From a virus, in the IMG/VR virus record IMGVR_UViG_3300045988_137032, positions 64,001 to 128,000 of that record: a DNA stretch of 64,000 nt, one strand, 5' to 3'. Below the pieces are notes generated by a model. It was not told where the DNA came from. It was given only the letters and a program-made list of their open reading frames with translations, and ran no database searches. The translations under genes and the position numbers were made by a program. Numbering within the stretch: the first letter of the stretch is position 1; the number at the start of each line of letters is the position of its first letter. Shown here piece after piece: positions 5,859 through 64,000 of this stretch.

Positions 5859-6671
5859 ATGGTAAGAACTGATCAAGCTTATATCAATCAGTACCTCGTC
5901 TATGACGAGGTGTTTGAAGCTTGTGAAGCATGTGAAAAAGCATGTGTAGAAGCTGATTATTTCCTGCGTAAAGAAGCTCGTAAGAGTTATCTTGATACTT
6001 ACTTTTCTGAAGCACTAAACGTCGGTGCTAAGAAGAATGATAAGACGGAAGATAACATCTTTGCTAAGATCGGTAAGGCTATCGTTGCTCTTATTGAGAA
6101 GATTAAGAAGGGTATCAAGCATATTACCGATGCTATTCTTGGTAGTGAGCGTCGCAATGCAAAAACAAATTCTGCCGTCCAGAAGATCATTGCTGAGAAT
6201 CCTGAACTGAAGAAGGATATCATCAAGGGTGTTCGTAATGAATGGTTCACATCATATGATGTTGCTGGCTATAAGAATGATATCATCGGTCTGATTAATA
6301 TGATTGATCAGGCTAAGATCGATAATGCTACAGCAATGGATAAGTTTAAGATGTCAACCGAGAAGTTCCGTAAAGGCACTGTTAAGGTTATTGCAGGTGC
6401 TGGTGCAGCAACTGCTCTCTTTAAATTCGTTACCGAATTGAATAATCAGCGTAAAGCTCTTCGTGATATGGCTACCGACGTCCAGAAGCTTTGTGAAAAG
6501 AAGAAGGAAGAAGCCGAGAAGAAGGGTAAGGATGCTGGTGTAATTAGCAACGTACTTCGTATTATCACCAGCACTATCCAGGTTCTTTTTGGTATTGATA
6601 AACAGCTTGAAGACAATACTAAGAATATCGAAAACCATGTCGAAAGTGCAACTGGTGTAAATAAATCTTAA
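5859..6671 (+). CDS. coiled-coil protein, paralog family member 5
   Basis: RBS AAAGGAAGGTG before ATG 5859; motif IFAKIGKAIVALIEKIKKGIKHITDAILG; hydrophobic VIAGAGAATALFKFV. Confidence 0.85.
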   Translation: MVRTDQAYINQYLVYDEVFEACEACEKACVEADYFLRKEARKSYLDTYFSEALNVGAKKNDKTEDNIFAKIGKAIVALIEKIKKGIKHITDAILGSERRNAKTNSAVQKIIAENPELKKDIIKGVRNEWFTSYDVAGYKNDIIGLINMIDQAKIDNATAMDKFKMSTEKFRKGTVKVIAGAGAATALFKFVTELNNQRKALRDMATDVQKLCEKKKEEAEKKGKDAGVISNVLRIITSTIQVLFGIDKQLEDNTKNIENHVESATGVNKS

Positions 6672-19939: not shown

Positions 19940-19970
19940 TCCATTTACCGTATTTTCTCAAATTTCAATT

Positions 19971-19980
19971 ATATATAATA
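19971..19980 (+). promoter_or_regulatory. class A promoter core, variant ATATATAATA
   Basis: aattATATATAATAtatgtgaaataag; the same downstream ATGTGAA string follows the sites at 47385 and 51735. Confidence 0.4.
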
Positions 19981-20011
19981 TATGTGAAATAAGAGAAAGG
20001 AGGGATTAAGA

Positions 20012-20969: not shown

Positions 20970-21021
20970 TTTAGACCATATAATTAATGGCTCATAACTG
21001 TATTCATCCTATTCTATAATG

Positions 21022-21031
21022 ATATATTATA
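21022..21031 (+). promoter_or_regulatory. candidate class A promoter core ATATATTATA
   Basis: ctataatgATATATTATAttgatatc, 41 nt upstream of ATG 21063. Confidence 0.45.
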
Positions 21032-21304: not shown

Positions 21305-21318
21305 TCGTTTTTATAATG

Positions 21319-21328
21319 ATATATTATA
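21319..21328 (+). promoter_or_regulatory. candidate class A promoter core ATATATTATA
   Basis: tttataatgATATATTATAcctatag, 51 nt upstream of ATG 21370. Confidence 0.45.
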
Positions 21329-25013: not shown

Positions 25014-25136
25014 TTCTGGGCTATTTTATCCGGAGGGGGTGGATAATGAAATTCATTGAGTTTCAATATCCCGGTGACAGTATCCTAACCGATGGTTTTG
25101 AAAGATAAACCTTATAAGAAAGGAATGGTCCTTATT

Positions 25137-28100: not shown

Positions 28101-28215
28101 GGATTTGATGGGGAGATCAAAGTTATTGACGACGGTGGTAAGTTGGTTTGGGAATGCCCGAACTGCGGCAACCGTGATCAGCATAAAATGAGCGTCGCTC
28201 GACGCACTTGTGGAT
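25137..28215 (+). CDS. nrdD: anaerobic ribonucleoside-triphosphate reductase NrdD, exon 1 (contains an in-frame intein)
   Basis: ATP-cone VKKRDNRIVEFDREKIVSAIQRAF; PCMG...CRSFLTPYKD...GRFNCGVVTISLP; C-terminal Cys4 CMCCG...CPNCG; glycyl-radical motif begins RRTCG at the exon end. Confidence 0.85.
26304..27299 (+). mobile_element. intein (332 aa) within NrdD
   Basis: Starts with Cys (CFDAKEVV). Block B is VEVTPNHPF. Ends YDVTTASEHFSASGIYTHN, followed by the +1 Cys of CRSFL. Degenerate LAGLIDADG-like REFLYGLIQTMRDD in the middle. Confidence 0.8.
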
Positions 28216-28527
28216 TGAATTATTCAATATAGTCCACGTTAAACCTGTTAAACTGCGGGAAGTTCCTTAGAGCTCTAGGTTACCAAGTATAGTTTGGTGA
28301 CAGCTATATGGCTGATTTTAACAGAATCGGATATGGTAAAAAGACTTAGAGATTGGATAATCATCGCATCGAAACTTCTGCGAGTAGAAATACTCGTATG
28401 GATTTATTCCACTTAGGGAAGGACGTTCAACGACTATAATACGGGCGCGCTACTTAGTGACTTCACTAAGCAAGTATGGTATAGTCTACTCCCGTACTTA
28501 AATATCGGGAAACCGAGGGTACAAAGG
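28216..28527 (+). ncRNA. group I self-splicing intron (no internal ORF) in nrdD
   Basis: Removing it restores RRTCG-YIGTHFWSQGRTDEIRNRYVH. The 5' exon end GUGGAU pairs with GUCCAC at 28232-28237, giving a U-G wobble at the splice site. The last intron base is G. AAACUGCGGGAAG and GGUUACCAAGUAU resemble group I core strings. Confidence 0.75.
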
Positions 28528-46538: not shown

Positions 46539-46571
46539 TTTACCGTAAAGTCTCGATTTATAATGATATAT
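46539..46571 (+). repeat. 33-nt promoter-proximal repeat, copy 1
   Basis: TTTACCGTAAAGTCTCGATTTATAATGATATAT, identical to 47358-47390. Confidence 0.85.
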
Positions 46572-46575
46572 TATA
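46566..46575 (+). promoter_or_regulatory. candidate class A promoter core ATATATTATA
   Basis: tataatgATATATTATAatggtgaataa, 85 nt upstream of ATG 46651. Confidence 0.45.
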
Positions 46576-46650
46576 ATGGTGAATAAAAAGAAGGGAATAG
46601 AAATATAACCTTCGAAAATTAACTTTGTATGATCCTAAGGAGGAATCACT

Positions 46651-47357: not shown

Positions 47358-47390
47358 TTTACCGTAAAGTCTCGATTTATAATGATATAT
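47358..47390 (+). repeat. 33-nt promoter-proximal repeat, copy 2
   Basis: identical to 46539-46571; here its GTCTCGATTT also pairs with AAATCGAGAC at 47341-47350. Confidence 0.85.
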
Positions 47391-47394
47391 AATA
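47385..47394 (+). promoter_or_regulatory. class A promoter core, variant ATATATAATA
   Basis: tataatgATATATAATAtatgtgaataataag, 113 nt upstream of ATG 47498. Confidence 0.4.
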
Positions 47395-47497
47395 TATGTG
47401 AATAATAAGAAAGGAATAATAAAGCAAACGGCTTTAAAATATCCTTTCTATGATCCTGATTAGAAAGATCAGGAAAAGTACTAGGAGGTACTATAAT

Positions 47498-49156: not shown

Positions 49157-49489
49157 ATGGCTAACAACAACGCAGTATATCAGCAGATGACAAACGTCAG
49201 CATTCCTCGTGATCGTTTGATGTGGCTCGCAGCAGATGATGCTATGAGTAAGAAAGCATACAAGGTAATGCTTTGCTTATTTACTCAGCTGGATGGGTAT
49301 AATAAGATTACCCAAAGACGTACGAAGGATCCTCTCAACTTCAAGATGATCGATTTCAAGGCAATTTCCAGTGCAATCGGTGTTTCCAAGAAAGAAGTGA
49401 AAGAAATCGTCGGTGAACTCATTGATGCAGATTATATTGAGATGGGTTCTTCCGATACGATCAATGAGGGATATCGTTTTACCTTCTAA
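49157..49489 (+). CDS. putative winged-helix DNA-binding protein
   Basis: ATG 2 nt after the upstream TGA. KAYKVMLCLFTQLDGYN...FKAISSAIGVSKKEVKEIVGELIDADYIEM resembles a MarR/replisome-organiser-type wHTH, recognised by pattern only. Confidence 0.6.
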   Translation: MANNNAVYQQMTNVSIPRDRLMWLAADDAMSKKAYKVMLCLFTQLDGYNKITQRRTKDPLNFKMIDFKAISSAIGVSKKEVKEIVGELIDADYIEMGSSDTINEGYRFTF

Positions 49490-51333: not shown

Positions 51334-51382
51334 AAATACAGACTGAGATTAGATTTATTTCTATCTCAGTCTGTATTTTTTG
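51334..51382 (+). terminator. intrinsic terminator
   Basis: 16-bp stem AAATACAGACTGAGAT / ATCTCAGTCTGTATTT plus T-run. Confidence 0.8.
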
Positions 51383-51406
51383 TCCGTGTAGTCTCCATTT
51401 TCATTT

Positions 51407-51416
51407 ATATATTATA
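51407..51416 (+). promoter_or_regulatory. candidate class A promoter core ATATATTATA
   Basis: catttATATATTATAgatgtaat, 43 nt upstream of ATG 51450. Confidence 0.45.
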
Positions 51417-51449
51417 GATGTAATATAAAATGAAAGGAGGTGAATGGAC

Positions 51450-51704: not shown

Positions 51705-51734
51705 TTGGCATACGTATTAAAACGAATATTAATG

Positions 51735-51744
51735 ATATATTATA
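51735..51744 (+). promoter_or_regulatory. candidate class A promoter core ATATATTATA
   Basis: attaatgATATATTATAtatgtgaaataaag, 67 nt upstream of ATG 51802. Confidence 0.45.
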
Positions 51745-51801
51745 TATGTGAAATAAAGCAGACAAAAGAGTTGCTTTAAAGTGAAAGAGAGGTTTTAAAT
51801 T

Positions 51802-53595
51802 ATGGCAAAGAATACGTGGAATAAAATGGTTTACCCTGAACGTGCTTACGAATGGATTCGCTACTATGTCCTTGACGGTCTGTTTGATTATATTAATGAG
51901 AAATATAATCCAGTCATCCTTCGTATCATTGAAGATTATATTCGTGAATCGGATAATATTAATGATCGTGAAAGAAAATTGTACGATCTATATATCATCA
52001 AGGGGTTAAACCAGGCTGAAATAGCTGTCGAGTTTGGAGTATCTTATGAGAAAATTAGACAGCTGCTTGCAAAACTTGGAAGAAAGATTCATGGTAGGAA
52101 GATAATTTGTGAGATTCGCAAAAGATATGATCTCATGGTAAATCCTGATGAAGTTATGTATAATGAAGAACTGGATCATTATACACAGGATATCTACATG
52201 CCGGAATGGGATAGCTATGCATGTAGAAAACTTCAGAGATATATTCTGACCAGAATCAATGAGTATCTCTATCCCGATTGCCAGATGCGTGAGCCGTCCA
52301 TTTCTGATATCTTGTCCATTATGGAAGATAAGAATATCACCATGGAGGATATGTTTAACGACATTGACGAAAATATGGCTGAGATGCTTAACTGGTACTT
52401 CTCTGAAAATCCTTATCGTACGGAAGAGTATGAGAAGGATGAACCTGCAACGGTTCTTTATCTCGATTATTCTGAAGTGTTACGTCATCGGAAACCGGTT
52501 TTGCCGAAAGGTAAAAAGAGTATCCGTCGTAAGAAGACATCGGAACAATACAAGTCTGAGTATCATTATGGTGAAATGTATCTTGGACCCGATAAAGTTC
52601 CTATGAAGGACGGCATTCCGAACATATCCTTCTACAAACTTGTCAACTATCCGACGAACGTTATATGGTTTCTGCGTGATGCTAAAGTCATTAGTGGAAT
52701 CGATCGGAGAGAGACTAGACTGACGGAGAAGGAATCGGCAGCAAACTTCATGGGATATGTCTACCGTAAGATGAACGATGATAAAGCTGCAGCTGCATTT
52801 ACCCAGTTCTTCATGCACAACGATGATTCACACATTGATGAGATGGCTATCTATAGTCTTTTCTGTGCTGTGAGAAAAGATCGTGATATCGTAAGACCTC
52901 TTGTCTTAGGTGAAACTGATGCTGCCCGTGCTCAGTTTATGCTTGAGTGCGATACTACCTACAAGAATAACTACAATAAGCACATTGATGATTTCTTTAG
53001 AGGTGTCAAGTCGACCAAATACATTGGCAGCTTCTTTAAAAATCATCCGGAGATTCGGTTTGTTGATGACTTCACATGTGGGATTATCAACGGAACCATC
53101 ACAACCGCAAGCTTCAATAATGATGAAGAAAGCGTCCGGATCATCAATACAGTTATCACACAAGCACCTTTTATCAATTACGATGCTGGCGGATTCGATA
53201 CGAGCAAGTTCAAATGCTATAATATCAAAATGCCACATCTGAAGTTCGTTAAGAATGAACGGGTTAGCCATAAGAGCTTTGATGAAATCGTCAATGACAA
53301 ATCAGTGAATGCCGATAAGTTTGATGCAACTCCTTTGACGATGGATACAGCTGTAGTTTATGATCTTAAGGTTTTCGAGAATGAGACTGAATACTATAAG
53401 ATTATTAATAATGCTGAGATCAAAACCATTGGAAACCTGGTACGTGCTGTCATGAAGGATTATGATTTCTGCGGAGATGCTGGAATTAGTATGGAAACTG
53501 CTCGTAGGATTTTCATCTATGTAGCATATCTTGAAGATGAAATCACTGCCGTTAAAACAAGAAAGGAGCAAAAATATGACCTTCTCGGAATTTAA
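51802..53595 (+). CDS. 597-aa protein with a sigma-70 region-4-like HTH near the N-terminus
   Basis: ERKLYDLYIIKGLNQAEIAVEFGVSYEKIRQLLAKLGRKI fits the region 4.2 / LuxR-type HTH pattern; the rest is unassignable. Confidence 0.6.
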   Translation: MAKNTWNKMVYPERAYEWIRYYVLDGLFDYINEKYNPVILRIIEDYIRESDNINDRERKLYDLYIIKGLNQAEIAVEFGVSYEKIRQLLAKLGRKIHGRKIICEIRKRYDLMVNPDEVMYNEELDHYTQDIYMPEWDSYACRKLQRYILTRINEYLYPDCQMREPSISDILSIMEDKNITMEDMFNDIDENMAEMLNWYFSENPYRTEEYEKDEPATVLYLDYSEVLRHRKPVLPKGKKSIRRKKTSEQYKSEYHYGEMYLGPDKVPMKDGIPNISFYKLVNYPTNVIWFLRDAKVISGIDRRETRLTEKESAANFMGYVYRKMNDDKAAAAFTQFFMHNDDSHIDEMAIYSLFCAVRKDRDIVRPLVLGETDAARAQFMLECDTTYKNNYNKHIDDFFRGVKSTKYIGSFFKNHPEIRFVDDFTCGIINGTITTASFNNDEESVRIINTVITQAPFINYDAGGFDTSKFKCYNIKMPHLKFVKNERVSHKSFDEIVNDKSVNADKFDATPLTMDTAVVYDLKVFENETEYYKIINNAEIKTIGNLVRAVMKDYDFCGDAGISMETARRIFIYVAYLEDEITAVKTRKEQKYDLLGI

Positions 53596-55163: not shown

Positions 55164-55690
55164 TGGCAGTTATAGTTACCGATGATAATGGAAAATCCCG
55201 TAGTGTAGATATCTCTTTTGAGGAAGCCCAAAGAGTATTTGGACCTATGCTTGGTGATGCACCGGAATTTCTCAAAGCAAAATATGCTAGTCGAATTAAA
55301 GCTGTTCGGGATTGCTTATGTGAATTGGCTACATCTAATTCAAATAAAGAAACCTGTGGAGATAAAATGAAAACTATGTACATTATTAGCAAAGCAAACG
55401 TAACCGTTGATAATACAGGATGTATCCGTAATATTATATCTAGCATCCATGGTGATGCTTATAACACTATCGAATATGCTGCTGATGAAATTATAAAGCT
55501 AAGTAAGCATTATAGCACCATTAGCAGTGAGCTTGGTCTTAATCTTCAGATTTCTATGAGTACTGATGAAGAGACTGGCGAGAGATGTCTAACCGTTTCT
55601 CATGTATCGTATACTCCCCAAGGAAATGGAGATAAGATGTTTGAATGCGAAACGATGGTTGTCTTTAAGATCTGCGAGGTTACTGTATAA
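55163..55690 (+). CDS. protein with one SFxEAQ module plus a C-terminal MKVYAI-type module
   Basis: TAATG overlap; ISFEEAQRVFGPMLGDAPEF; MYIISKANV...AYNTIEYAADEIIKL. Confidence 0.8.
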   Translation: MAVIVTDDNGKSRSVDISFEEAQRVFGPMLGDAPEFLKAKYASRIKAVRDCLCELATSNSNKETCGDKMKTMYIISKANVTVDNTGCIRNIISSIHGDAYNTIEYAADEIIKLSKHYSTISSELGLNLQISMSTDEETGERCLTVSHVSYTPQGNGDKMFECETMVVFKICEVTV

Positions 55691-55965
55691 TGGATGAATG
55701 GTATCTCGAAAAATACACCATGCAGATGAAAGACTCCATTTGCATTTCCATACTGGCGCAAGCTATTATGAGTAGTTGGAATGGAATGGGTGCTGCTGCA
55801 TATGATGATGAAGCTACACGTAAAAAGCTGTCAAGAGCTATGGACATTGCAAAAGATGTCTATGATAAGAAACTGAGGACTTATCAAAAAGACAGTGATG
55901 GAAACTATATAGATAGTAATGGAGATCACAAAAATAAACCCGGAGTGTCTGTGACATTCAAATGA
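55690..55965 (+). CDS. hypothetical small protein
   Basis: TAATG overlap; 91 aa. Confidence 0.7.
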   Translation: MDEWYLEKYTMQMKDSICISILAQAIMSSWNGMGAAAYDDEATRKKLSRAMDIAKDVYDKKLRTYQKDSDGNYIDSNGDHKNKPGVSVTFK

Positions 55966-55970
55966 TAAAA

Positions 55971-56018
55971 ATCACCTAGATACGTTGAATATGCGTATCT
56001 AGGTGATATTATTTTTTT
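55971..56018 (+). terminator. intrinsic terminator
   Basis: 14-bp stem ATCACCTAGATACG / CGTATCTAGGTGAT plus T-run. Confidence 0.8.
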
Positions 56019-56048
56019 CATAAAGCATTTATAGATTTCAATTACATC

Positions 56049-56090
56049 TCAAAAAACCTAACAAATGCTATGCATTTGTTAGTTAAATAG
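56049..56090 (+). repeat. 42-nt cassette leader repeat, copy 1 (contains the 11-3-11 palindrome at 56058-56082)
   Basis: TCAAAAAACCTAACAAATGCTATGCATTTGTTAGTTAAATAG, identical in all three copies; palindrome CTAACAAATGC tat GCATTTGTTAG. Confidence 0.9.
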
Positions 56091-56122
56091 TTGACAAATG
56101 AATGCTAGAAAGAGGTGAGACT

Positions 56123-56443
56123 ATGAATGTACCTATAACACTAGCAAACGGAAATACCGTTGAACTTAATAACATCACTGAATCTGGTAATGGGTATATC
56201 AGATTCAGTGATGGTACCCAGATATGTTATGCTGTATATCAGCATAATAATGAATTATCAACGTATGTATCATTCCCAAGATCATATGCTAAACATATTC
56301 ATGTCATAGCAACACCAATAGATTATAATGATGGAGCTGAAACTATAGTTAATATAGGCCATATAGATCAATATGGGTTTTTATCATATTCGAATTCTAA
56401 TAGTGCAATCATTAACTATATTGCTATAGGTCGTTGGAAATAG
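56123..56443 (+). CDS. stand-alone tail-fibre knob-like domain protein, cassette 1
   Basis: RBS AGAGGTGAG. MNVPITLANGNTVELNNITESGNGYIRFSDGTQICY...VSFPRSYAKHIHVIATP...NYIAIGRWK resembles the gp53-like C-terminal knob pattern (G..IQWG...V.FP..F....V...IAIG). Confidence 0.75.
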   Translation: MNVPITLANGNTVELNNITESGNGYIRFSDGTQICYAVYQHNNELSTYVSFPRSYAKHIHVIATPIDYNDGAETIVNIGHIDQYGFLSYSNSNSAIINYIAIGRWK

Positions 56444-56453
56444 CCTCTTTATA

Positions 56454-56491
56454 AATGACAGTGTAGATTTTTTAGTCTACACTGTCATTTT
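56454..56491 (+). terminator. hairpin after cassette 1
   Basis: 14-bp stem AATGACAGTGTAGA / TCTACACTGTCATT. Confidence 0.65.
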
Positions 56492-56518
56492 AGCACTTGT
56501 ATAGTTTTCAATTGTATC

Positions 56519-56560
56519 TCAAAAAACCTAACAAATGCTATGCATTTGTTAGTTAAATAG
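56519..56560 (+). repeat. 42-nt cassette leader repeat, copy 2
   Basis: identical 42-mer; flanks also similar (tagttttcaattgtatc vs tagatttcaattacatc). Confidence 0.9.
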
Positions 56561-56599
56561 ATGTAATTGGTTGACAAATGCAAGAAAGGAAGTGGTAAA

Positions 56600-56986
56600 A
56601 TGAATGTACCGATGTCATTATCCAGCGGTAAATCCATTGAATTAAACAACATCACTGAATCTGGTACTGGGTATATCAGATTCAGTGATGGTACACAAAT
56701 TTGCTATGGAATATGTAATGCGTTGAATGAATCAGGAATAAAATCAGATAGAGTTGCTGGTAAGTTTACATATCCAAAGTCTTTTATTAGTACGCCTGTA
56801 TGTAGCGTCATTAGACAATATGACAACTATAGTGAAAATATTGATAGTCTTAATAAAAATCTTACAATTGATCGAATCGTATCAAGCAGTTCAATTTGTT
56901 TATTTGATATTGTATGTACAACAGGCGAAATCGTTTTTCCTGATATAACATCTGCTAAATATATAGCAATCGGCCGTTGGAAATAA
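56600..56986 (+). CDS. stand-alone tail-fibre knob-like domain protein, cassette 2
   Basis: MNVPMSLSSGKSIELNNITESGTGYIRFSDGTQICYG...FTYPKSFISTPVCSVI...KYIAIGRWK. Confidence 0.75.
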   Translation: MNVPMSLSSGKSIELNNITESGTGYIRFSDGTQICYGICNALNESGIKSDRVAGKFTYPKSFISTPVCSVIRQYDNYSENIDSLNKNLTIDRIVSSSSICLFDIVCTTGEIVFPDITSAKYIAIGRWK

Positions 56987-56995
56987 CTTCCTTAG

Positions 56996-57030
56996 ATTGA
57001 CACTGTAGATGTGTGTTCTACAGTGTCAAT
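56996..57030 (+). terminator. hairpin after cassette 2
   Basis: 14-bp stem ATTGACACTGTAGA / TCTACAGTGTCAAT, no T-run. Confidence 0.5.
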
Positions 57031-57075
57031 TATCATCCATTTTCTATCGTAGCATCGTTAGATTTCAAAACTTTT

Positions 57076-57117
57076 TCAAAAAACCTAACAAATGCTATGC
57101 ATTTGTTAGTTAAATAG
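57076..57117 (+). repeat. 42-nt cassette leader repeat, copy 3
   Basis: identical 42-mer. Confidence 0.9.
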
Positions 57118-57144
57118 ATGATAAACGGTTAAAGGATGTTTATC

Positions 57145-57549
57145 ATGATTACTAATATGCAACTATCAGATGGATCATGGTACCAAATTGGTGATATAGA
57201 ATCAGTGCATTATGACGATGGTCAAACTGTTATTCGATATAAAAATGGAATCCAAATATCTATGGTCGGTTCTAATATAGTATTAGGTGATGCGAGTTGT
57301 CATAAGATTAATCTAGTACGTCCTTTTGTTGAAGATTCTTTTGTTACGTGTGTTGTATCAGCGAATAACTCAAAGGCTAGTGATGAAAGCAATATCGTTG
57401 AATCAACGGCACACTTAAATTCTTATCTACAGATAGGATCTGTTTCAACATGGAATTGTTTATATGTCTATCCTCAGTGGCTACCAAATGTTCCTACAAT
57501 AGATATTCAGGCCGGAATCCACGCAATTTTATTCGGCCGATGGAAATGA
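57145..57549 (+). CDS. stand-alone tail-fibre knob-like domain protein, cassette 3 (most diverged)
   Basis: RBS AAAGGA 8 nt before ATG 57145; MITNMQLSDGSWYQIGDIESV...GQTVIRYKNGIQISM...HAILFGRWK. Confidence 0.7.
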   Translation: MITNMQLSDGSWYQIGDIESVHYDDGQTVIRYKNGIQISMVGSNIVLGDASCHKINLVRPFVEDSFVTCVVSANNSKASDESNIVESTAHLNSYLQIGSVSTWNCLYVYPQWLPNVPTIDIQAGIHAILFGRWK

Positions 57550-57594
57550 GTGTACACTATAGAACTCTACGGGAAGAAATTCTATAATGCACAC
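57550..57594. terminator. imperfect hairpin between cassette 3 (+) and the tRNA (-)
   Basis: GTGTACACTATAGAA / TTCTATAATGCACAC (2 mismatches). Confidence 0.4.
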
Positions 57595-57599
57595 TCAAA

Positions 57600-57673
57600 T
57601 GCGCTCGGTGGAAGTCGAATCCACACTGAACGAAGCTTAAGTTCGTTGCCTCTGCCAATTGGGCTACCAGCGC
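57600..57673 (-). tRNA. tRNA, anticodon UAA (Leu by the code) with a short variable loop
   Basis: Minus strand reads GCGCTGG TA GCCC AATTGGCAG AGGC A ACGAA CTTAAGC TTCGT TCAGT GTGGA TTCGACT TCCAC CGAGCGC A. The T arm and anticodon arm are perfect, with a TTCGA T-loop, GG in the D-loop and A73. There is one G-G mismatch in the acceptor stem (6:67), a 3-bp D stem, and no encoded CCA. Confidence 0.7.
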
Positions 57674-57711
57674 GTATCTTTTAACTAACTAATAGTTTGT
57701 ATTATAATAAG

Positions 57712-57758
57712 AAAAAAGAAGGAACCTAATCGTTTTGAATTAGGTCCCTTCTTTTTTT
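57712..57758. terminator. bidirectional hairpin terminator ending the small-ORF array
   Basis: stem AAGAAGGAACCTAAT / ATTAGGTCCCTTCTT (1 mismatch) with T-runs on both strands. Confidence 0.75.
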
Positions 57759-58113
57759 AATCCCTATTGTATCCTGTAGACAGTTTCACTCTCACAAGGA
57801 AACTTTCTCCATCCATACCGCTGTCTTTTACATCCATTTCATATTTACATCCATCCACTAATGCATTCACAGCACCAATGAAAATGTCATCATCGAATGC
57901 AATCACGTTCATGACATATCGTTCCGGGTTTAACGAAACACAGCGTCTTTTGTCGAAGTGCAATACCTTTGCATATGCATCTAAGATGATATCTTCTTTC
58001 TTACCATCTTTCTCATATTCCAGTTCATAGTTTTCGTCAGTAATCTTTTTGAATATGATCTTATCATATCCATGGAAATTACTCTCTTCACGAAATACAA
58101 CGGGTTTTATCAT
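57757..58113 (-). CDS. small protein, last gene of the array
   Basis: RBS AAAGGAGAAAG before ATG 58113 (MIKPVVFREE...). Confidence 0.7.
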   Translation of the reverse strand: MIKPVVFREESNFHGYDKIIFKKITDENYELEYEKDGKKEDIILDAYAKVLHFDKRRCVSLNPERYVMNVIAFDDDIFIGAVNALVDGCKYEMDVKDSGMDGESFLVRVKLSTGYNRD

Positions 58114-58126
58114 GTAGCTTTCTCCT

Positions 58127-58678
58127 TTAATGAATATCAAAATCCTCCAATTTCTTGGAAGCAGGTAATACCGGATGAATGAACCATGCTTTCACAATTC
58201 TTCCCTGAGGATCACGAATATACGTAACCATGCAATTCTTTGCATAGAGCATAATCTGAGGAGACACACTATTCTTGCCAAGACCCAGTTGCTTAGCTTG
58301 CTGATTAGCCTGCTCAAGCACATAGCTAGTAGCAGACTCACAAGTATATTCATACATAGGGAGAATCTTGGGATACCGGTTACTATAAGCAACAACAGCC
58401 ATATCATTCTCCATATCATAGTCTACGCTGGTAACGATATATCCAACCAAGGGAATATCACAGGGGTCTTCACCATCCAGTTCACATTCAAGTGTATAGT
58501 CGTAATTGCGAATGTATTCGTCTTCATCTTGTACGCGTGTTTTGCAATGCAAGTCTGCTCTTTCTTTATTCCCAAAGAAGAATGGGAATACGGTATCAAC
58601 GCAATGATCCGGAGTCATGTTATATGCGTTCATAGAAGTATTCCGGATGCAATGGTTAATCACAACGTATGCTTTCAT
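58127..58678 (-). CDS. small protein, MKVYAI-type family
   Basis: RBS GGAGGAAA before ATG 58678; MKAYVVINHC...FGNKERADLHC. Confidence 0.75.
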   Translation of the reverse strand: MKAYVVINHCIRNTSMNAYNMTPDHCVDTVFPFFFGNKERADLHCKTRVQDEDEYIRNYDYTLECELDGEDPCDIPLVGYIVTSVDYDMENDMAVVAYSNRYPKILPMYEYTCESATSYVLEQANQQAKQLGLGKNSVSPQIMLYAKNCMVTYIRDPQGRIVKAWFIHPVLPASKKLEDFDIH

Positions 58679-58710
58679 AATAAGTTTCCTCCATGTGTTA
58701 TATAAGTTGA

Positions 58711-59184
58711 TTATCCCCAAATAACAGCGTTATTTGGAAGATGTACGTTTTGAGCTACCAATTGATATTGGGTTCCTTCACTTACCATTTTCACATAATG
58801 GTCTTTTACAGTATGCTCATCATTGAGCATTTCAAACCCCTCATAAATACGATGTTCTACTTCCTCTTTGATGTCATTGACAACGGCTTCCTCTGTAGGA
58901 TATGCGTAGCACTTTGCATAGAAAGGAGAGATGATGCAACTAGCACCTAAGTATCTTGTATCGTAAAGAATCTCAATCCAGATATTTCTAGTCCATCCAA
59001 TCAGGGTATCAGAGAAATTCTTCTCATTAAAGATATCTACCTTAATCGGACATACTTTCCATAATACGGAATTTGAAATGGAATGAGAAGCATATTGGAT
59101 AGCTTCCGCTTCTGTAGTAAAGGTCTTGTCATGCGCCCACATGAAATCACCATTTCTACATACGATGGCATATACAGTCAGCAT
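58711..59184 (-). CDS. small protein, MKVYAI-type family
   Basis: RBS AAAGGAGAT; MLTVYAIVCRNGDFMWAHDKTFTTEAEAIQYASHSI. Confidence 0.75.
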   Translation of the reverse strand: MLTVYAIVCRNGDFMWAHDKTFTTEAEAIQYASHSISNSVLWKVCPIKVDIFNEKNFSDTLIGWTRNIWIEILYDTRYLGASCIISPFYAKCYAYPTEEAVVNDIKEEVEHRIYEGFEMLNDEHTVKDHYVKMVSEGTQYQLVAQNVHLPNNAVIWG

Positions 59185-59199
59185 TTATCTGTATCTCCT

Positions 59200-59715
59200 T
59201 TATTCGATATATCCAATTTGATCGATATTAGCAACTCGGATGGGAATGATCTTACACCAGCACTTCTTAGTCCGAGTGGAATCAGAAAGTACCGCACTGG
59301 TATCGTATTTCTCAATGACAGTGTCAAGACACTCATCAATACGATATTTGGGGCGATACACAATATCACCAAGCAATGTCATAGCCATTGTCTTAGTAGG
59401 AATGATCTTAGAGCAGAAAAGAGAATGGACCGGATTCAACGGGCCTCCTTCTCTCACATTGAAGTTTGTCTTAAAGACGATGACGTAAACAAAGTCGCTC
59501 CAAGGGATATCATTGAAAAGTTTAATCTCCTTTTCATAGCATGCATACTCAATGGTAGTATGATTCATATCAAGATCCGTCTGCTTTGTAAGCCATGTAT
59601 TATATTGCGCGATAGCTTCATCAGAAGATTTGTAGGTTTGTGTAAAACCACTAGGGCTATGATGATCGGGATTGTCATCCTTCACAATGTCAAGTAATAG
59701 AAGATAGACTTTCAT
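59200..59715 (-). CDS. small protein, MKVYAI-type family
   Basis: RBS TAGGAGGAAG; MKVYLLLLDIV...TYKSSDEAIAQYNTWL. Confidence 0.75.
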   Translation of the reverse strand: MKVYLLLLDIVKDDNPDHHSPSGFTQTYKSSDEAIAQYNTWLTKQTDLDMNHTTIEYACYEKEIKLFNDIPWSDFVYVIVFKTNFNVREGGPLNPVHSLFCSKIIPTKTMAMTLLGDIVYRPKYRIDECLDTVIEKYDTSAVLSDSTRTKKCWCKIIPIRVANIDQIGYIE

Positions 59716-59736
59716 AATACTTCCTCCTAGAGTTAT

Positions 59737-60012
59737 TTAAGATGCAATATATTCCACACAAATGTGCTCAAACGTATTGTTGCCTATGAAGTTATCGTAC
59801 TCCAGAGCAAGATCATTGATACGGTGAATATTATTCGCATCACTATCTTTCATGAGTACTTTCTCATCAAAGATAGATTGAATCACAGCTTCTTTTCTTG
59901 TATAATGCTGGCAAAAGTTTGTAGTAATGGTCTTAAGATTCCCATTACTATCTTTGAAAGATACCAGCTTCCTACAGAAATATTTCCTTCTCTTACTGGC
60001 TTTGAAAAACAT
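59737..60012 (-). CDS. small protein of the array
   Basis: RBS AAGGAGAAT; ...QHYTRKEAVIQSI. Confidence 0.7.
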   Translation of the reverse strand: MFFKASKRRKYFCRKLVSFKDSNGNLKTITTNFCQHYTRKEAVIQSIFDEKVLMKDSDANNIHRINDLALEYDNFIGNNTFEHICVEYIAS

Positions 60013-60026
60013 CTATCGCATTCTCC

Positions 60027-60323
60027 TTAATAATAGTAAATTTCGGTAGACTCAATGTGGTATTTATTCATACCCTTCTTTCCATCAACGTCATAGCTGA
60101 CAGTAAGAGTATTATCATCAGGACGATCGATGTCAAGCTTCATATCATGATACCCACGGAAAGTTTCTTCCAGAGAATCAAGATAATCAACTGCGTCATC
60201 CTTATTGTAATATCCATGAAGTACTTTACTGGGAACACAAACTACTTCATTCCCAGAAGTAGTATCATAGATATCGTACATGATAAGGTTGACGTTAATG
60301 GTTTTTACTTCAGGATTTTCCAT
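60027..60323 (-). CDS. small protein, MKVYAI-type family (diverged)
   Basis: RBS AAGGAGAT; LIMYDIYD...GYYNKDDAVDYLDSL. Confidence 0.7.
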   Translation of the reverse strand: MENPEVKTINVNLIMYDIYDTTSGNEVVCVPSKVLHGYYNKDDAVDYLDSLEETFRGYHDMKLDIDRPDDNTLTVSYDVDGKKGMNKYHIESTEIYYY

Positions 60324-60337
60324 AAATACAAATCTCC

Positions 60338-60619
60338 TTATACATATCCTTCGTCTTCTACACGAACTTTTTCAATTTGCACGGTATGGACTTCTTGAAT
60401 TACTTTAGATTCTGCTCCAGGAATCATATCGCATGCTGTGATACGTTTCGTATAAGTGAGGCCCATTCCATCCGGATGCATCATAGCGGTTAAATTATTC
60501 TTTGAAAACTTCTCCAACCACTTTTGTGCATTCAGCAAACGATAGAATGCGGAATTTACTTTTACTTCAATTCCGTATCCATATTCTTCTCGGTCGATGG
60601 TTTCAAGTATTACGTACAT
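60338..60619 (-). CDS. small protein, MKVYAI-type family
   Basis: RBS AAGGAGGA before ATG 60619; MYVILETIDREEYGYGIEVKVNSAFYRLLNAQKWLEKF. Confidence 0.7.
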   Translation of the reverse strand: MYVILETIDREEYGYGIEVKVNSAFYRLLNAQKWLEKFSKNNLTAMMHPDGMGLTYTKRITACDMIPGAESKVIQEVHTVQIEKVRVEDEGYV

Positions 60620-60645
60620 AAACAATCCTCCTTGTGTTAATATAA

Positions 60646-61143
60646 TCAATAAAGGTTCATACCTTTTATCAATTCAAAGTTAAAGCAATAATACGTATCA
60701 TCTCTTGACGTATATGCTTTAATCGTACGAGGAACCCCATAGGTTGCAACTACTTCAGGAGAAGCAAGATCAGCATTCTTATTGATCTTAAGAACGATAT
60801 GACCTTTTGTATTCATCAAAGAAACCATATTAGGAATTTTGATCATCATTCCTGCTTTATAATAAGTGACCTTATGAGATGGATCATATCCAGTGGATTT
60901 TCGGCGGAATGTAACGGTAGCAATCTCATTATCGGGAGCCACTTCTACATTCGTTTCGCCATTGTAATTGCGTTTGAAGTATTTATCTTCACAATCACAA
61001 ATCAGTTTATTCCATGTGATATTTCTTGCAGTAGGTTTCATATACAGCTTAGACTGATACAAAGAGAATTTAGGTGCATAAGAACCATCATAGGATTCTT
61101 TCTTTTGAAGAATGGCAAATACTGCCATTTCTGTTTCAAACAT
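60646..61143 (-). CDS. small protein of the array
   Basis: TAATG overlap with the upstream gene; 165 aa. Confidence 0.7.
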   Translation of the reverse strand: MFETEMAVFAILQKKESYDGSYAPKFSLYQSKLYMKPTARNITWNKLICDCEDKYFKRNYNGETNVEVAPDNEIATVTFRRKSTGYDPSHKVTYYKAGMMIKIPNMVSLMNTKGHIVLKINKNADLASPEVVATYGVPRTIKAYTSRDDTYYCFNFELIKGMNLY

Positions 61144-61415
61144 TATTCGTCCTCCTCAACAAGAGTTTCCTTCTTTACCATCACGCGGATATCAACCGTT
61201 TTATCCGGATATTCAAAAGTTTGATGCAATATGCGATTGAGAAGTTTATTCAATGTGATGAAAGGAGATTCACATCCATTCGCATAATACTCCACAAGTC
61301 TATCATGTGCCAGTTTAATGGAAGCATATTTCTTTCCTTCAGTATACATAATGACATGATCTTTTGAAGTATCTTTAATATAAACATGAATCTCATAGAT
61401 AGGTATTTCTTTCAT
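61143..61415 (-). CDS. small protein of the array
   Basis: RBS GAAGGAGAG in the end of the upstream gene; 90 aa. Confidence 0.7.
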   Translation of the reverse strand: MKEIPIYEIHVYIKDTSKDHVIMYTEGKKYASIKLAHDRLVEYYANGCESPFITLNKLLNRILHQTFEYPDKTVDIRVMVKKETLVEEDE

Positions 61416-61420
61416 AGAGT

Positions 61421-61711
61421 CTACTCTCCTTCATCAAATTCACATTCCTGAATTTGTGCTACTATGAGTATACAACCATACTTCTTGATATCACTGTAAT
61501 TGTAATAAGAAGCATAGCAAAACACGGTACCGTCATCTTCATTGACTTCAAATGGCGTATGCTTGAAAAGACTATGAACGGAATCACCATCTTTATTAAA
61601 GTCATCTTTAATGCGATAAAGAGCTTTAATTGCTTTCTCTCTATTCTTAAAGACTTTCTTTAAGATAGATGACGAATGGTTATTCGTAACCATAATGACA
61701 TAGGCTTTCAT
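61421..61711 (-). CDS. small protein, MKVYAI-type family
   Basis: RBS AAAGGAGG; MKAYVIMVTNNHSSSILKKVFKNREKAIKALYRI. Confidence 0.75.
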   Translation of the reverse strand: MKAYVIMVTNNHSSSILKKVFKNREKAIKALYRIKDDFNKDGDSVHSLFKHTPFEVNEDDGTVFCYASYYNYSDIKKYGCILIVAQIQECEFDEGE

Positions 61712-61742
61712 CTATTTAATACCTCCTTTAATGATCTATAAG

Positions 61743-61752
61743 TATAATATAT
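61743..61752 (-). promoter_or_regulatory. candidate class A promoter core ATATATTATA, internal to the array and embedded in a hairpin
   Basis: minus strand reads ttaatgATATATTATActtatag; flanked by the inverted repeat CCTTTAATGAT / ATCATTAAAGG (61727-61761). Confidence 0.4.
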
Positions 61753-61754
61753 CA

Positions 61755-62042
61755 TTAAAGGTTTCTTATTTCAACCCATACGGAAATCACTTCAGACGTA
61801 CTGGGTTCTTTTCCGTGATACACCATATCATGATAAATACACATCTTGTCATCATTTACTTTGTATTCAGAGAATTCAAAGTCTTTATGCTCAAGATGTG
61901 TATTATTTTCTTCATTGAGATTCAGTGTATCACAAATCTCATGAAGTGTATTGAGGGCTTGATCTTTTGAATAATACAGAGGATCATACAAATGATGGAT
62001 TCTGTCAGGATAATACCCTGATACGATAGCATAAACTTTCAT
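61755..62042 (-). CDS. small protein, MKVYAI-type family
   Basis: RBS GAGG; MKVYAIVSGYYPDRIHHLYDPLYYSKDQALNTLHEI. Confidence 0.75.
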   Translation of the reverse strand: MKVYAIVSGYYPDRIHHLYDPLYYSKDQALNTLHEICDTLNLNEENNTHLEHKDFEFSEYKVNDDKMCIYHDMVYHGKEPSTSEVISVWVEIRNL

Positions 62043-62054
62043 AATTAAACCTCA

Positions 62055-62339
62055 TCATTCTTTAGTAAATTCTGATGTATTTTCTGTATACATTTCTTTT
62101 GCAAATGCACTAATATTCGGTTCCTTAGAATCTTTCCAGGTTTCAATAACAGAAAGATCCTCTTCATCAACTGTGTAATACACATGACCATTTTCAACAG
62201 AAATAAGCTGTGACAGTGCGTTCTTTATTTCGTTAAGACGAGAAATACAGCTTTCTTTCGTTGTATAAACCATATCCTCTATCCGAGCAATATTCTTATA
62301 AGGCCCACCATAGGTATGGCAGATAGCATAAACTTTCAT
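62055..62339 (-). CDS. small protein, MKVYAI-type family
   Basis: RBS GAGGT; MKVYAICHTYGGPYKNIARIEDMVYTTKESCISRLNEI. Confidence 0.75.
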   Translation of the reverse strand: MKVYAICHTYGGPYKNIARIEDMVYTTKESCISRLNEIKNALSQLISVENGHVYYTVDEEDLSVIETWKDSKEPNISAFAKEMYTENTSEFTKE

Positions 62340-62341
62340 AA

Positions 62342-62617
62342 TTAGTTTACCTCAAATTCACGAATATATGCTACAATAATATTATGCTTAAGCTTAGGAT
62401 AATCTTTATATTTTATTGGGTAAAATATCGTCTCGGCCTTTTCATCAACTTCATACGGCTCATGTAATTCAGCAGCCGGTATACGAACCATTCCTTCATT
62501 ATACTGATTGCAAAGTTCATGAAGACGATCAATTGCTTTATCATGATCAAAATGGAATGATTTTATCTCAGGACCATTATTATTAATCAAACTAACTACA
62601 AAATAAACTTTCGTCAC
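62342..62617 (-). CDS. small protein, MKVYAI-type family, first gene of the array
   Basis: RBS GAAAGGA. A GTG start at 62617 gives MTKVYFVVSL...FDHDKAIDRLHEL. The ORF-track start at 62626 is an alternative. Confidence 0.7.
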   Translation of the reverse strand: MTKVYFVVSLINNNGPEIKSFHFDHDKAIDRLHELCNQYNEGMVRIPAAELHEPYEVDEKAETIFYPIKYKDYPKLKHNIIVAYIREFEVN

Positions 62618-62658
62618 GGTAAACACATCCTTTCATATTTAACCGTCTACTATGATAT

Positions 62659-62712
62659 GAAAAAATAAGCACACAAGCCGGATATAAAATCACAGCTTGT
62701 GTGCTTATTTTT
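62659..62712. terminator. hairpin terminator downstream of the tail-fibre gene
   Basis: 15-bp stem AATAAGCACACAAGC / GCTTGTGTGCTTATT with T-runs on both strands. Confidence 0.8.
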
Positions 62713-62854
62713 GCATTTCTTAGTTAGTTATTAGATGACTTTGTTAAAAGATGATAAAGGGGTTTTTGTTATATTTTTTTTTTGAAAAATTTATTGATCC
62801 TAAATGACAAAAATCAATAAATTGTTAACAATTTAAACGTGCATAAAAGTATAA

Positions 62855-64000
62855 TCATTCTCCGTTACCATTCGCTGTAATAATGCTTGTATTACCGAAT
62901 CCAATTTCGATATTCCAGGAATTGCACCAATGAGATACAATTTCAATATTACCTGATGGAAGCATTTCGGTTTTATAATCATTTGGTCTAAAGCCCAAGT
63001 TGCCGGTAAAATCAATAACAAGCTCTGTATTCGGCTTAACTAAGAATGACTCCTCAATATCCGTAACACTAATAGATTTAATATCCCTCTCTGTAAAATT
63101 AACCGTTGAATGATCTGATGATATTCTTCCTTTCACATACACATTAGATTTATATGATTTCAATAGATTTACAATTGTACTATTTTTAAATTCATCGCCT
63201 ATATTAAAAGTAAATTTTACCGTATCGGATTTATATCCATTATAATAGTAACCACCATCACTATCAGTTTTTATTGTATACATGTCAGCAGCCAATCCCC
63301 AATGAGACCTAAAATAGTTCTCATTTTTTGAAAGTTTTACATTTTCGACTATAATAAATCTTTCTTGAGCTGTATATTGCCCGCTTTTTACAGTGATCAC
63401 AGTATCGACTGTATTGCCTGTAACTTCACTATACGACATATCGCCAGTGGACGAATTTACATTGACAACTGAATTATTCGAGCTATACGAAATCGGACTT
63501 GATTGCGTGCATGTATCAGGTGTCGGCTTATACCTCAGGGTGCATGATTGCGCAATGCCAGGAATATAATATACACCACCAAAGTTACCATAATAGTATG
63601 GCCATGAACCACTTACTTTAGCAATACCAGTCTGAGCAACGCCCATATTATTCAAGTCAAGAATCTGAGAGAAAGTCTTCCCTCCATATTTATATGCAGC
63701 ATTCGATCCAGGATTGTCTTTCACCATGATATAATTTAAAACCCACTGCAATGTACTATAGTGGTCATTTGCGGTAGATATTGCATCAAATTTTGATTTT
63801 AAAGAATTTACAGCATCCGATATCGTAGAATCTTTCTGATCAACTTCGAATTGTGTGTAATATCTATCATCATGATTATGTGCTTCAGGAGGATATGCGG
63901 TAGGCTTATTGGTCACATTAGACCACGATATACCATCGGATGTTGTTACGATTTTAAACCATTCGCCAAACGAATTCGTTGAATCGCCATGTGCTTGTTT
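62855..64000 (-). CDS. tail fibre protein, N-terminus outside the window
   Basis: The frame stays open to nt 64000; the GTG at 63916 is internal. SDGISWSNVTNKPTAYPPEAHNHDDRYYT is the W-x-N-[IV]-x-x-KP...H-x-H motif common in phage tail fibres. Confidence 0.7.
   Translation of the reverse strand, partial: KQAHGDSTNSFGEWFKIVTTSDGISWSNVTNKPTAYPPEAHNHDDRYYTQFEVDQKDSTISDAVNSLKSKFDAISTANDHYSTLQWVLNYIMVKDNPGSNAAYKYGGKTFSQILDLNNMGVAQTGIAKVSGSWPYYYGNFGGVYYIPGIAQSCTLRYKPTPDTCTQSSPISYSSNNSVVNVNSSTGDMSYSEVTGNTVDTVITVKSGQYTAQERFIIVENVKLSKNENYFRSHWGLAADMYTIKTDSDGGYYYNGYKSDTVKFTFNIGDEFKNSTIVNLLKSYKSNVYVKGRISSDHSTVNFTERDIKSISVTDIEESFLVKPNTELVIDFTGNLGFRPNDYKTEMLPSGNIEIVSHWCNSWNIEIGFGNTSIITANGNGE

Follow-up and report, generated by a model that had tools for sequence, protein, structure and literature searches.

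Tandem cassettes of free-standing tail-fibre-tip proteins behind an invariant palindromic leader in an AR9-like human-gut jumbo phage

Short repeated non-coding units that combine a promoter with a stem-loop directly upstream of variable accessory open reading frames (ORFs) are known from T4-like phages as PeSL (promoter-early stem-loop) cassettes, in which the stem-loop may lie inside the promoter and recombination between copies gives rise to insertions, deletions and replacements among close relatives (Arbiol et al. 2010, PMC2839356; Comeau et al. 2014, PMC4122927). The locus analysed here is alike in both its layout and its recombination. It comprises three tandem cassettes, each made up of a palindromic leader, a stand-alone ORF and a stem-loop, at positions 56036-57594 of a 64,000-nt stretch of viral DNA (positions 64,001 to 128,000 of IMG/VR record IMGVR_UViG_3300045988_137032; hereafter the window), which is part of an uncultured ~262-kb human-gut jumbo phage with AR9/PBS1-like multisubunit RNA polymerases. 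While PeSL elements carry host sigma-70 early promoters, number ~50 per genome, precede unrelated ORFans and have loosely conserved G/C-rich stems, the present unit has neither a sigma-70 consensus nor an early or late one, is present in 2-5 copies per genome, precedes members of one gene family and has a stem that is invariant in sequence.

The cassette products have their nearest described counterparts in the Gp53-like_C/H-type-lectin tips of phage and pyocin fibres (AP22 gp53, 4mtm; the R1/R2 pyocin foot, 6cl5/6cl6; the F2-pyocin side fibre, 25ve), with which they share the same beta-sandwich domain, the motif G-Y-I-R-F-x-D-G-T-Q-I-C-Y-G, the end motif Y-I-A-I-G-R-W-K and a hypervariable middle. 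There, however, the domain forms the last ~100 residues of a long trimeric fibre, whereas in the arrays it is the whole protein (106-157 amino acids, aa) and several paralogues are held side by side, each with its own control region and terminator; the cassette ORFs of the window (106-134 aa) do not stand at the C-terminus of a fibre shaft. As a working analogy only, the gp38 adhesins of T2/T6-type phages are likewise modular, fast-evolving host-range determinants, reportedly small separate proteins that give receptor specificity to the fibre encoded by another gene. They differ in that their sequence and fold are unrelated, that T2-type phages have one copy next to gene 37 and that attachment to the fibre tip is proven for gp38.

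The 42-nt leader TCAAAAAACCTAACAAATGCTATGCATTTGTTAGTTAAATAG has three exact copies, starting at 56049, 56519 and 57076 of the plus strand, where shuffled sequences give an expectation of 0, and its central 11-3-11 palindrome, CTAACAAATGC-tat-GCATTTGTTAG, is present in three copies in the 64 kb and nowhere else in it. Similarity between the leaders reaches further upstream, forming a 75-nt repeat family with 84-85% identity; leader, palindrome and similar upstream flank thus all lie where the original prediction had placed them. In cassette 1 an upstream box, TTTCAATTAC (56036..56045, +), is followed by the palindrome (56058..56082), an invariant TTAAAT (56083-56088), a Shine-Dalgarno sequence GAAAGAGGTGAG and a 106-aa ORF (56123..56443, +) encoding a free-standing Gp53-like_C/H-lectin-like knob, after which comes a stem-loop, AAATGACAGTGTAGA / TCTACACTGTCATTT, presumed to be a terminator (56453..56490, +; -23.4 kcal/mol, z -8.1). 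Cassette 2 repeats this order with the box TTTCAATTGT (56506..56515, +), the palindrome (56528..56552) and TTAAAT, a 128-aa knob ORF with a longer variable middle (56600..56986, +) and the stem-loop ATTGACACTGTAGA / TCTACAGTGTCAAT (56996..57030, +; -22.2 kcal/mol, z -6.5), in which a G:C pair of stem-loop 1 is replaced by C:G. Cassette 3 has the box TTTCAAAACT (57063..57072, +), the palindrome (57085..57109) and TTAAAT, a 134-aa ORF for a divergent member of the knob family (57145..57549, +) and an imperfect stem-loop with the core CTATAGAA...TTCTATA (57550..57594, +; -11.7 kcal/mol, z -4.6), which belongs to the same hairpin family that ends the arrays of all relatives. The three stem-loops contain ACAGTGTAGA, ACACTGTAGA and ACACTATAGA, respectively. 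The N-terminal motif is as given in the original prediction, which describes it for ORFs 1 and 2 and calls cassette 3 diverged, and each of the three ORFs of 106-134 aa has its stem-loop behind it; the C-terminal pattern [IL][AF][IF]GRWK, proposed for all three, fits ORFs 1 and 2 but is not quite matched by ORF3, which ends ILFGRWK. A 10-bp hairpin, GATGATAAAC / GTTTATCATG (57118-57147), encloses the Shine-Dalgarno sequence of cassette 3 and pairs its start codon, and may be a translational brake peculiar to cassettes of this type.

Five related loci were identified through their proteins, not through the palindrome, and together with the window they provide 22 cassettes (two in L092, three in the window, four each in L002, L003 and L090, and five in L089), which form the only unbiased sample, as copies from DNA pattern searches are preselected for the arms. 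The palindrome is present in 22/22 cassettes and its arms carry no change of any kind; only the 3-nt centre differs, reading TAT in the clade of the window and, in a second clade, either TAA or TTA. Units of box, palindrome and terminator flank every knob ORF in 6 phage contigs, and a 250-kb IMG/VR genome holds exactly 4 palindrome copies, all upstream of knob ORFs (three arrayed, one solitary). A pattern search of metagenomes yielded five contigs with twelve further leader copies; the remaining 61 of the 66 matches to the 18-nt palindrome core were discarded as unrelated, lacking the flanks and by rough estimate corresponding to a chance number. The leader has 0 matches in 185,579 bacterial and archaeal genomes. 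When 25 leaders are aligned, their elements follow a fixed order of box, 12 variable nt, palindrome, invariant TTAAAT and 25-40 variable nt with the ribosome-binding site. The box, (A/T)TTCAA(TT/AA)AC, is found in 25/25, with one variant (TTTCAATTGT, window leader 2), and starts a fixed 22 nt before the palindrome; the 12-nt spacer after it has A6 in one clade and T6 or a mixed sequence in the other.

This constancy stands against the divergence of everything around it. Pairwise identity among the cassette ORFs is 20-88%, and protein identity between the clades is typically 40-55%. Between L002 and L003 the DNA is 92-95% identical overall, 98-100% identical in the leaders and 64-75% identical inside the ORFs of cassettes 1 and 2, and the gene of the fourth cassette is replaced (33-46% identity). 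The window and L002/L003 differ at 24-43% of the synonymous sites in flanking genes (synonymous divergence, dS, 0.29-0.65), so that ~10 changes would be expected per neutral 25 nt, and 0 are seen in any orthologous pair of palindromes. The terminator of the early-type operon upstream of the array (55971..56007, +; a 15-pair stem-loop followed by the T-run ATTATTTTTT in the terminator scan) served as a control hairpin, with a fold of -25.7 kcal/mol (z -8.7). In this terminator, 50 nt upstream of the first leader, two pairs have changed on both sides between the clades, A:T to G:C in both cases, and the 3' stem-loops of the cassettes also vary by compensatory swaps. The ~65-nt control region is thus under extreme purifying selection at the sequence level, in contrast to the diverging and replaced genes that it precedes.

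The cassette ORFs are free-standing members of the Gp53-like_C/H-type-lectin family of tail-fibre tips and have the fold of that family. ORF1 and ORF2 match the last ~100 positions of PHROG 2712, annotated 'tail fiber protein' (E 2.7e-12 and 4.9e-11), and a profile of the family matches the F2-pyocin side fibre (25ve) at residues 256-363 of 363 (E 1.2e-12), 9cod_A at residues 986-1090 of 1090 (E 2.4e-7) and AP22 gp53 (4mtm; E 0.08). Among 36 aligned family members Gp53-like_C is matched by 12 (best E 4.5e-7) and H_lectin by 2; the Pfam profile search gave no match to Gp53-like_C (PF21882) for ORF2 or ORF3. The AlphaFold2 model of ORF1 is all-beta with a predicted local distance difference test (pLDDT) score of 81, and Foldseek aligns it with the R2/R1 pyocin fibre feet 6cl6/6ct8 (TM 0.65, root-mean-square deviation 2.0-2.1 Å over 85 columns), as well as with H-type lectins and dozens of predicted phage fibre tips. 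In BFVD it has 56 matches at E<=1e-3, the best 50 of these 56 being mostly annotated as tail-fibre or receptor-binding proteins. The divergent ORF3 type is joined to the rest of the family by hhalign (probability 95.9%, E 5.8e-9), and its AlphaFold2 model (pLDDT 72.5, from an alignment that included ORF1-type sequences) has fibre tips as BFVD matches. ORF1 and ORF2 are 48-52% identical, depending on the alignment, and ORF3 is 21-26% identical to ORF1; the variable part of the domain is its middle. The fibre-knob reading of the original prediction, made from residue patterns, is therefore supported by profile and structure searches alike through PHROG 2712, the F2-pyocin match and the resemblance to pyocin feet, lectins and fibre tips, with the qualification that ORF1 itself falls below the Pfam cut-off. 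Its remark that the domain is encoded alone also holds, as a trait of this phage group only: across 80 IMG/VR loci the domain is usually the C-terminal end of proteins of 180-820 aa, with few of ~100 aa, and the 84 nearest database relatives of the cassette proteins range from 106 to 218 aa in length, several of them on contigs of 250-270 kb. Within this phage group free-standing knobs are normal; elsewhere they are exceptional.

We favour an adhesin role for these proteins because their family and fold are those of fibre tips, because the variable part lies in the middle of the domain and because the array of the second clade directly follows Phage_fiber_rpt genes in the same orientation. The knobs would trimerise and be displayed on the tail as alternative adhesins, widening or shifting the host range. 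That they are instead soluble lectins, intracellular or released, or assembly helpers for the true fibres, and not virion parts, is in our estimate unlikely; such lectins might for example mask receptors against superinfection or keep progeny from sticking to debris. A soluble protein would explain why the knobs lack a shaft and a recognisable anchor, the domain in the ORFs of 106-134 aa being preceded by only ~20 residues and accompanied by no recognisable attachment module, why the array of the window's clade sits after an early-type operon and not after fibre genes, and why the N-termini of the knobs show no significant resemblance to those of neighbouring fibre-like proteins (hhalign probability 2%), for which reason a docking peptide shared between the two was also dropped as a candidate. 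Against it stand the fold and family, which are those of distal fibre and pyocin tips, the second-clade array directly behind fibre genes, and the short stand-alone homologues in other phages that are annotated, by prediction only, as receptor-binding or tail-fibre proteins. Moreover, the knobs have no hydrophobic N-terminus, signal peptide or membrane segment, and a defence role was dropped when model searches gave no match to defence systems. The assembly-helper variant meets the further difficulty that, to our knowledge, no known fibre chaperone is homologous to the tip domain.

How the adhesin genes might be switched on has to be judged against the promoters of the phage itself. Among the genes of the window are those for a multisubunit RNA polymerase with split beta and beta' subunits, for a DnaB-like helicase and for an anaerobic ribonucleotide reductase. 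The nearest named relatives are the Bacillus phages AR9 and PBS1, whose beta subunits share 34% identity with that of the window, and a human-gut metagenome contig of 261,761 bp contains the exact ORF1 protein. In the INPHARED collection of GenBank phages (50,697 records), megablast and blastn found nothing similar to the region and tblastn nothing similar to ORF1, so the phage group is not represented in that collection. Copies of a ~45-nt repeat family, whose core is TAATGATATATTATA, precede genes at 19944-20004, 21015-21031, 21312-21328, 46539-46599, 47358-47418, 51380-51440 and 51713-51756 (+), with a further copy at about 61743-61758 (-). The family closely resembles the AR9 early consensus, that of the virion polymerase, AAATATATATTAT-(6N)-G (PMC5312081), and is probably the early promoter class of the phage. 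The late motif of AR9, read by the non-virion polymerase, is AACA-(6N)-TA/G (Lavysh et al. 2017, PMC5312081; PMC7598289). In the window, 8/18 [GA]AAAACA sites have the form [GA]AAAACA-N6-TAA and lie 35-100 nt upstream of start codons (about 739, 3163, 5800, 29444 and 49488, +; about 25016, 20972 and 15123, -); they probably constitute the late, non-virion polymerase class, with a motif longer and stricter than that of AR9. The same motif also stands upstream of a 727-aa gene in L086, another ~260-kb phage.

Most cassettes are divided from the sequence before them by strong stem-loops, which in the case of the first cassette means a canonical terminator and its T-run. Each cassette therefore needs its own promoter, and the leaders fit none of the standard classes. 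A consensus scan for sigma-70 promoters found no positioned site in the leaders, where TTTCAA-N17-TAACAA matches 3/6 consensus bases in each hexamer; the early core ATATATTATA / TAATGATATATTATA is absent from them; and a canonical late promoter was rejected because the leader has CTAACA instead of AAAACA and N5 to TA on the coding strand. AACA-N5-TA is found on the coding strand in 24/25 leaders and AACA-N6-TA on the opposite strand, so that an earlier remark on a non-consensus N5 spacing is right for the plus strand and had overlooked the N6 spacing on the minus strand. The resemblance to AR9 late promoters extends to AACA followed by TA 5 or 6 nt on and to a leader of ~50 nt before the start codon, as in the late genes of the window. 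It ends at the N5 spacing on the coding strand of most leaders, at CTAACA in place of the [GA]AAAACA-N6-TAA of the window's late sites and at the second arm, TTAAAT flank and upstream box, which have no counterpart there. Since 17/118 AR9 late promoters deviate from the consensus in spacing or bases, and 7 late promoters drive antisense RNA (PMC5312081), an AACA-N5-TA core with its start at the palindrome centre may nevertheless be functional.

Invariant arms around a free centre are the usual pattern of operators bound by dimers. Hairpins of these genomes that matter by structure only accumulate compensatory changes, the palindrome is held in its sequence with a free centre, and we therefore infer a duplex-DNA site for a symmetric dimer. 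It is reasonably probable that the palindrome acts at the DNA level, as an operator overlapping a cassette-specific promoter. In this arrangement the palindrome would work as double-stranded DNA bound by a symmetric dimer, the AACA...TA core of the overlapped promoter would put the transcription start at the palindrome centre, and all knob paralogues would be switched on together, probably late. A 110-aa winged-helix protein (49157..49489, +; Pfam CvfB_WH, E 4e-5) is a reasonable candidate reader of the palindrome in view of its conservation: it is 92% identical to its homologue in the second clade (L160 1501-1830), the other 16 matched proteins being 40-83% identical, which makes it the most conserved of the 17 proteins compared between the clades; it has no homologue in GenBank phages. 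A 597-aa protein with a Sigma70_r4-like helix-turn-helix, likewise suggested originally as a possible reader, is an unlikely one, as it is 24% identical, helix-turn-helix included, between phages that share an identical palindrome (window 51802-53595, +; L003 1056-2828). The gene of this protein has ~40% DNA identity between L002 and L003, phages that are otherwise 92-95% identical, and looks like a case of allelic replacement of a putative transcription factor.

The original prediction also allowed for a hairpin in the 5' untranslated region (5'-UTR), with a promoter near the TTTCAATTAC box and an 11-bp RNA hairpin at the 5' end of the message that serves as a stabiliser against 5' exonucleases, as an RNase III site or as a translational operator for an RNA-binding protein. 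As RNA the palindrome is indeed stable (-12.6 kcal/mol, z -6.0) and forms in all three full leaders, the box is like the upstream half of the early promoter ATTTCAATTA at 19962, an alignment by which transcription of the cassette would start near the hairpin, and the candidate regulator has its best Pfam match in the winged helix of CvfB type, which belongs to a family of RNA-binding proteins. The pattern of change is nevertheless the reverse of that expected. In most recognition of RNA hairpins by proteins the loop matters most, and here it is the loop that varies and the 22 stem positions that never change, even though other hairpins of these genomes, the nearby terminator among them, compensate. 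The spacer, A6 or T6 according to clade, would be a minor difference in DNA and a major one in RNA, and the core early motif ATATATTATA is missing from the leaders. An RNA hairpin is therefore decidedly less likely than the DNA operator, and we regard it as improbable.

Very doubtful, in our estimate, is a hairpin- or cruciform-type promoter from which the non-virion multisubunit RNA polymerase would fire at the centre of the palindrome, perhaps in both directions and with no regulator at all. AACA does occur on both arms, with the N6-TA spacing of AR9 late promoters always on one strand and N5-TA on the other, whichever of the loops TAT, TAA and TTA is present; the polymerase of AR9 recognises the template strand and is able to initiate on single-stranded DNA (PMC7598289), and AR9 has late promoters with off-consensus spacing as well as antisense promoters (PMC5312081). 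The phage's own late sites, however, are strictly [GA]AAAACA-N6-TAA, whereas the palindrome has CTAACA with the consensus spacing usually antisense to the ORF, and such a promoter would account for one arm and not for both arms together with TTAAAT and the fixed upstream box. We know of no multisubunit polymerase that needs a hairpin promoter. If such a promoter were real, a cellular-type polymerase would be using an N4-like structured promoter reserved for swappable receptor-binding tips.

Three further roles of the leader were considered and rejected. An alternative RNA fold, in which the right arm pairs with TTGACAAATG further downstream and close to the ribosome-binding site, forms in cassettes 1 and 2 (z -2.6 and -3.9) and is not seen in cassette 3 or in the majority of relatives. 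Read on the minus strand, where GTTTTTTGA (T6) comes after it, the palindrome scores as an intrinsic terminator in all three leaders of the window; as T6 lies on the other side in the second clade, this is clade-specific and not a conserved function. Origin iterons or a packaging site do not agree with copies ~500 nt apart that have genes between them.

Comparison of the relatives shows that the leaders are the places at which cassettes are gained, lost and swapped and at which a ~6-kb block has been inverted, in agreement with the earlier suggestion that they act as recombination substrates. The second leader of L092 consists of the upstream half of the leader of L089 cassette B and the downstream half of that of window cassette 3; window leader 1 joins the distal part of L002 leader 1 to the proximal part of L002 leader 2; and in a hybrid leader of L140 the upstream half is of the window's clade and the loop and downstream half are of the second clade. 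The fourth slot of L003 holds a different gene between an unchanged leader and the closing hairpin, and the number of cassettes among relatives ranges from 2 to 5. Insertions, deletions and replacements with breakpoints in the repeats, the hallmark of PeSL-type units, are thus seen here in the L092, window and L140 hybrids and in the fourth cassette of L003. The second clade has ~6 kb of small genes and the tRNA bracketed by a solitary cassette and an array on the opposite strand, and this block is inverted in the window's clade, where the array directly follows a 91-aa gene and leaders lie at the block ends. The inverted block comprises about 13 small genes, tRNA-Leu and the knob array (L137 1-9000; L004/L005; window 55690-62855); the second clade has kept the solitary cassette after the 91-aa gene, and its array adjoins fibre genes. 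Crossover points vary, falling in the box for window leader 1 and within the palindrome for L092, and this scatter of breakpoints along the leader argues for ordinary homologous recombination between repeats rather than for a site-specific enzyme. Homologous recombination between leaders would thereby shuffle the knob repertoire, as PeSL elements do in T4-like phages.

It is highly improbable that the palindromes are sites of a dedicated site-specific recombinase (integron-, shufflon- or invertase-like) that excises, inserts and inverts cassettes, for although cassette number and order vary, leaders are hybrid, the inverted block ends at leaders and several second-clade cassettes have a half-palindrome-like CTAACAAATG after their stop codons, the crossovers fall at differing places, unlike a fixed cleavage point, the odd 3-nt centre suits neither tyrosine (6-8 bp) nor serine (2 bp) recombinases, the neighbours scanned include no recombinase domain, the repeats are direct, the ORFs are complete with their own starts, the GTTRRRY core is absent and the window has no second copy of the cassette 3' parts resembling the template of a diversity-generating retroelement (DGR). 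Specific systems were dismissed on similar grounds: integron attC sites, as the palindrome lies 5' of ORFs that have their own ribosome-binding sites and its GTTAGTT departs from GTTRRRY (the window and neighbour ORFs scanned contained no integrase domain); DGR targets, as no cassette 3' region has a second copy within 64 kb, with paralogue differences that are not confined to a ~100-nt block as in a DGR-type variable region; and invertible tips of the Mu Gin or P1 Cin type, as the cassettes are complete and in direct orientation with a 3-nt centre instead of a 2-bp crossover (no serine invertase was found among the ORFs scanned). An arm-like string resembling TAACTAAC(A/T)AATG follows several cassette stop codons and the fibre gene of the window (window 62700-62740, -; L002 5822-5850; the 3' ends of L004/L005 cassettes). 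These strings may be the footprint of old recombination and are too weak to call; a relic half-site after the fibre gene (62713-62723) was not used for the same reason.

Taken as a whole, the reading of the locus as operator-controlled tandem cassettes of fibre-tip adhesins, shuffled by homologous recombination at their leaders, is tentative, and we are slightly inclined to doubt that all of its parts hold at once. Beside the position of the array and the short, anchorless N-termini already described, several observations weigh against it. ORF1 scores 18.1 bits (E 0.0039) against Pfam Gp53-like_C (PF21882), below the cut-off of 24.9, and the Foldseek E-values of its model against the Protein Data Bank (PDB) are modest (1.6e-3). 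The ratio of nonsynonymous to synonymous divergence (dN/dS) is 0.19-0.57 in the cassettes and 0.06-0.30 in most neighbours, and never exceeds 1. The invariance of the arms is measured on the 22 protein-ascertained copies, and the winged-helix protein is put forward as reader by its conservation. Finally, a distant knob gene (P0050, 169 aa; L086 4460-5640) lacks this leader. In L086 this gene is preceded, ~200 nt before its start codon, by a different, longer palindrome (arms of ~29 nt) sharing the core TAACAAAT / ATTTGTTA, and it is bracketed by ~110-nt direct repeats containing hairpins.

Paralogous fibre tips and repeated regulatory cassettes are known kinds of arrangement. As far as the available literature and sequence collections were searched, we found no earlier description of free-standing knobs kept as an array or of an invariant, family-specific palindromic control element in an AR9-like phage. 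If the adhesin and operator readings are true, this group of uncultured human-gut jumbo phages maintains a small library of free-standing receptor-binding tips that answers to a single, dedicated and extremely conserved switch, and the library is reshuffled by recombination there. The cassettes would then be a compact host-range module, and a design for engineering phage specificity in which a tip can be swapped between fixed flanks. The leader would likewise be a third class of control region beside the early and late promoters in the little-studied transcription of AR9-like phages, with a candidate regulator at hand, and its 25-bp signature a specific metagenome marker for the phage group and its cassette repertoire.

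The array of the window is closed by a convergent tRNA-Leu(UAA) gene (57600..57673, -), which was the only match to pass in an Rfam scan, the remaining ones being far below threshold. This tRNA marks the end of the array in the window and in the four relatives with ARAGORN detection (L092, L090, L004 and L137). At the corresponding position ARAGORN found no tRNA in L002 (about 7480-7590) or L089 (about 6005-6115), where the local sequence is different and longer; a type-II tRNA may have been overlooked or disrupted there. The nearest fibre gene of the window lies 5.3 kb from the array and encodes the C-terminal part of a long tail-fibre protein with the motif WSNVTNKPTAYPPEAHNHDDRYY (62855-64000, -), which runs off the window; its homologue in L092 has 613 aa with Phage_fiber_rpt, and its tip is unrelated to the knob family. 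Elsewhere in the window, the NrdD (anaerobic ribonucleotide reductase) gene (25092-28232, +) has an Intein_splicing match at residues 451-736 (E 6e-6, below the Pfam cut-off), and appears from this match to be interrupted by an intein.

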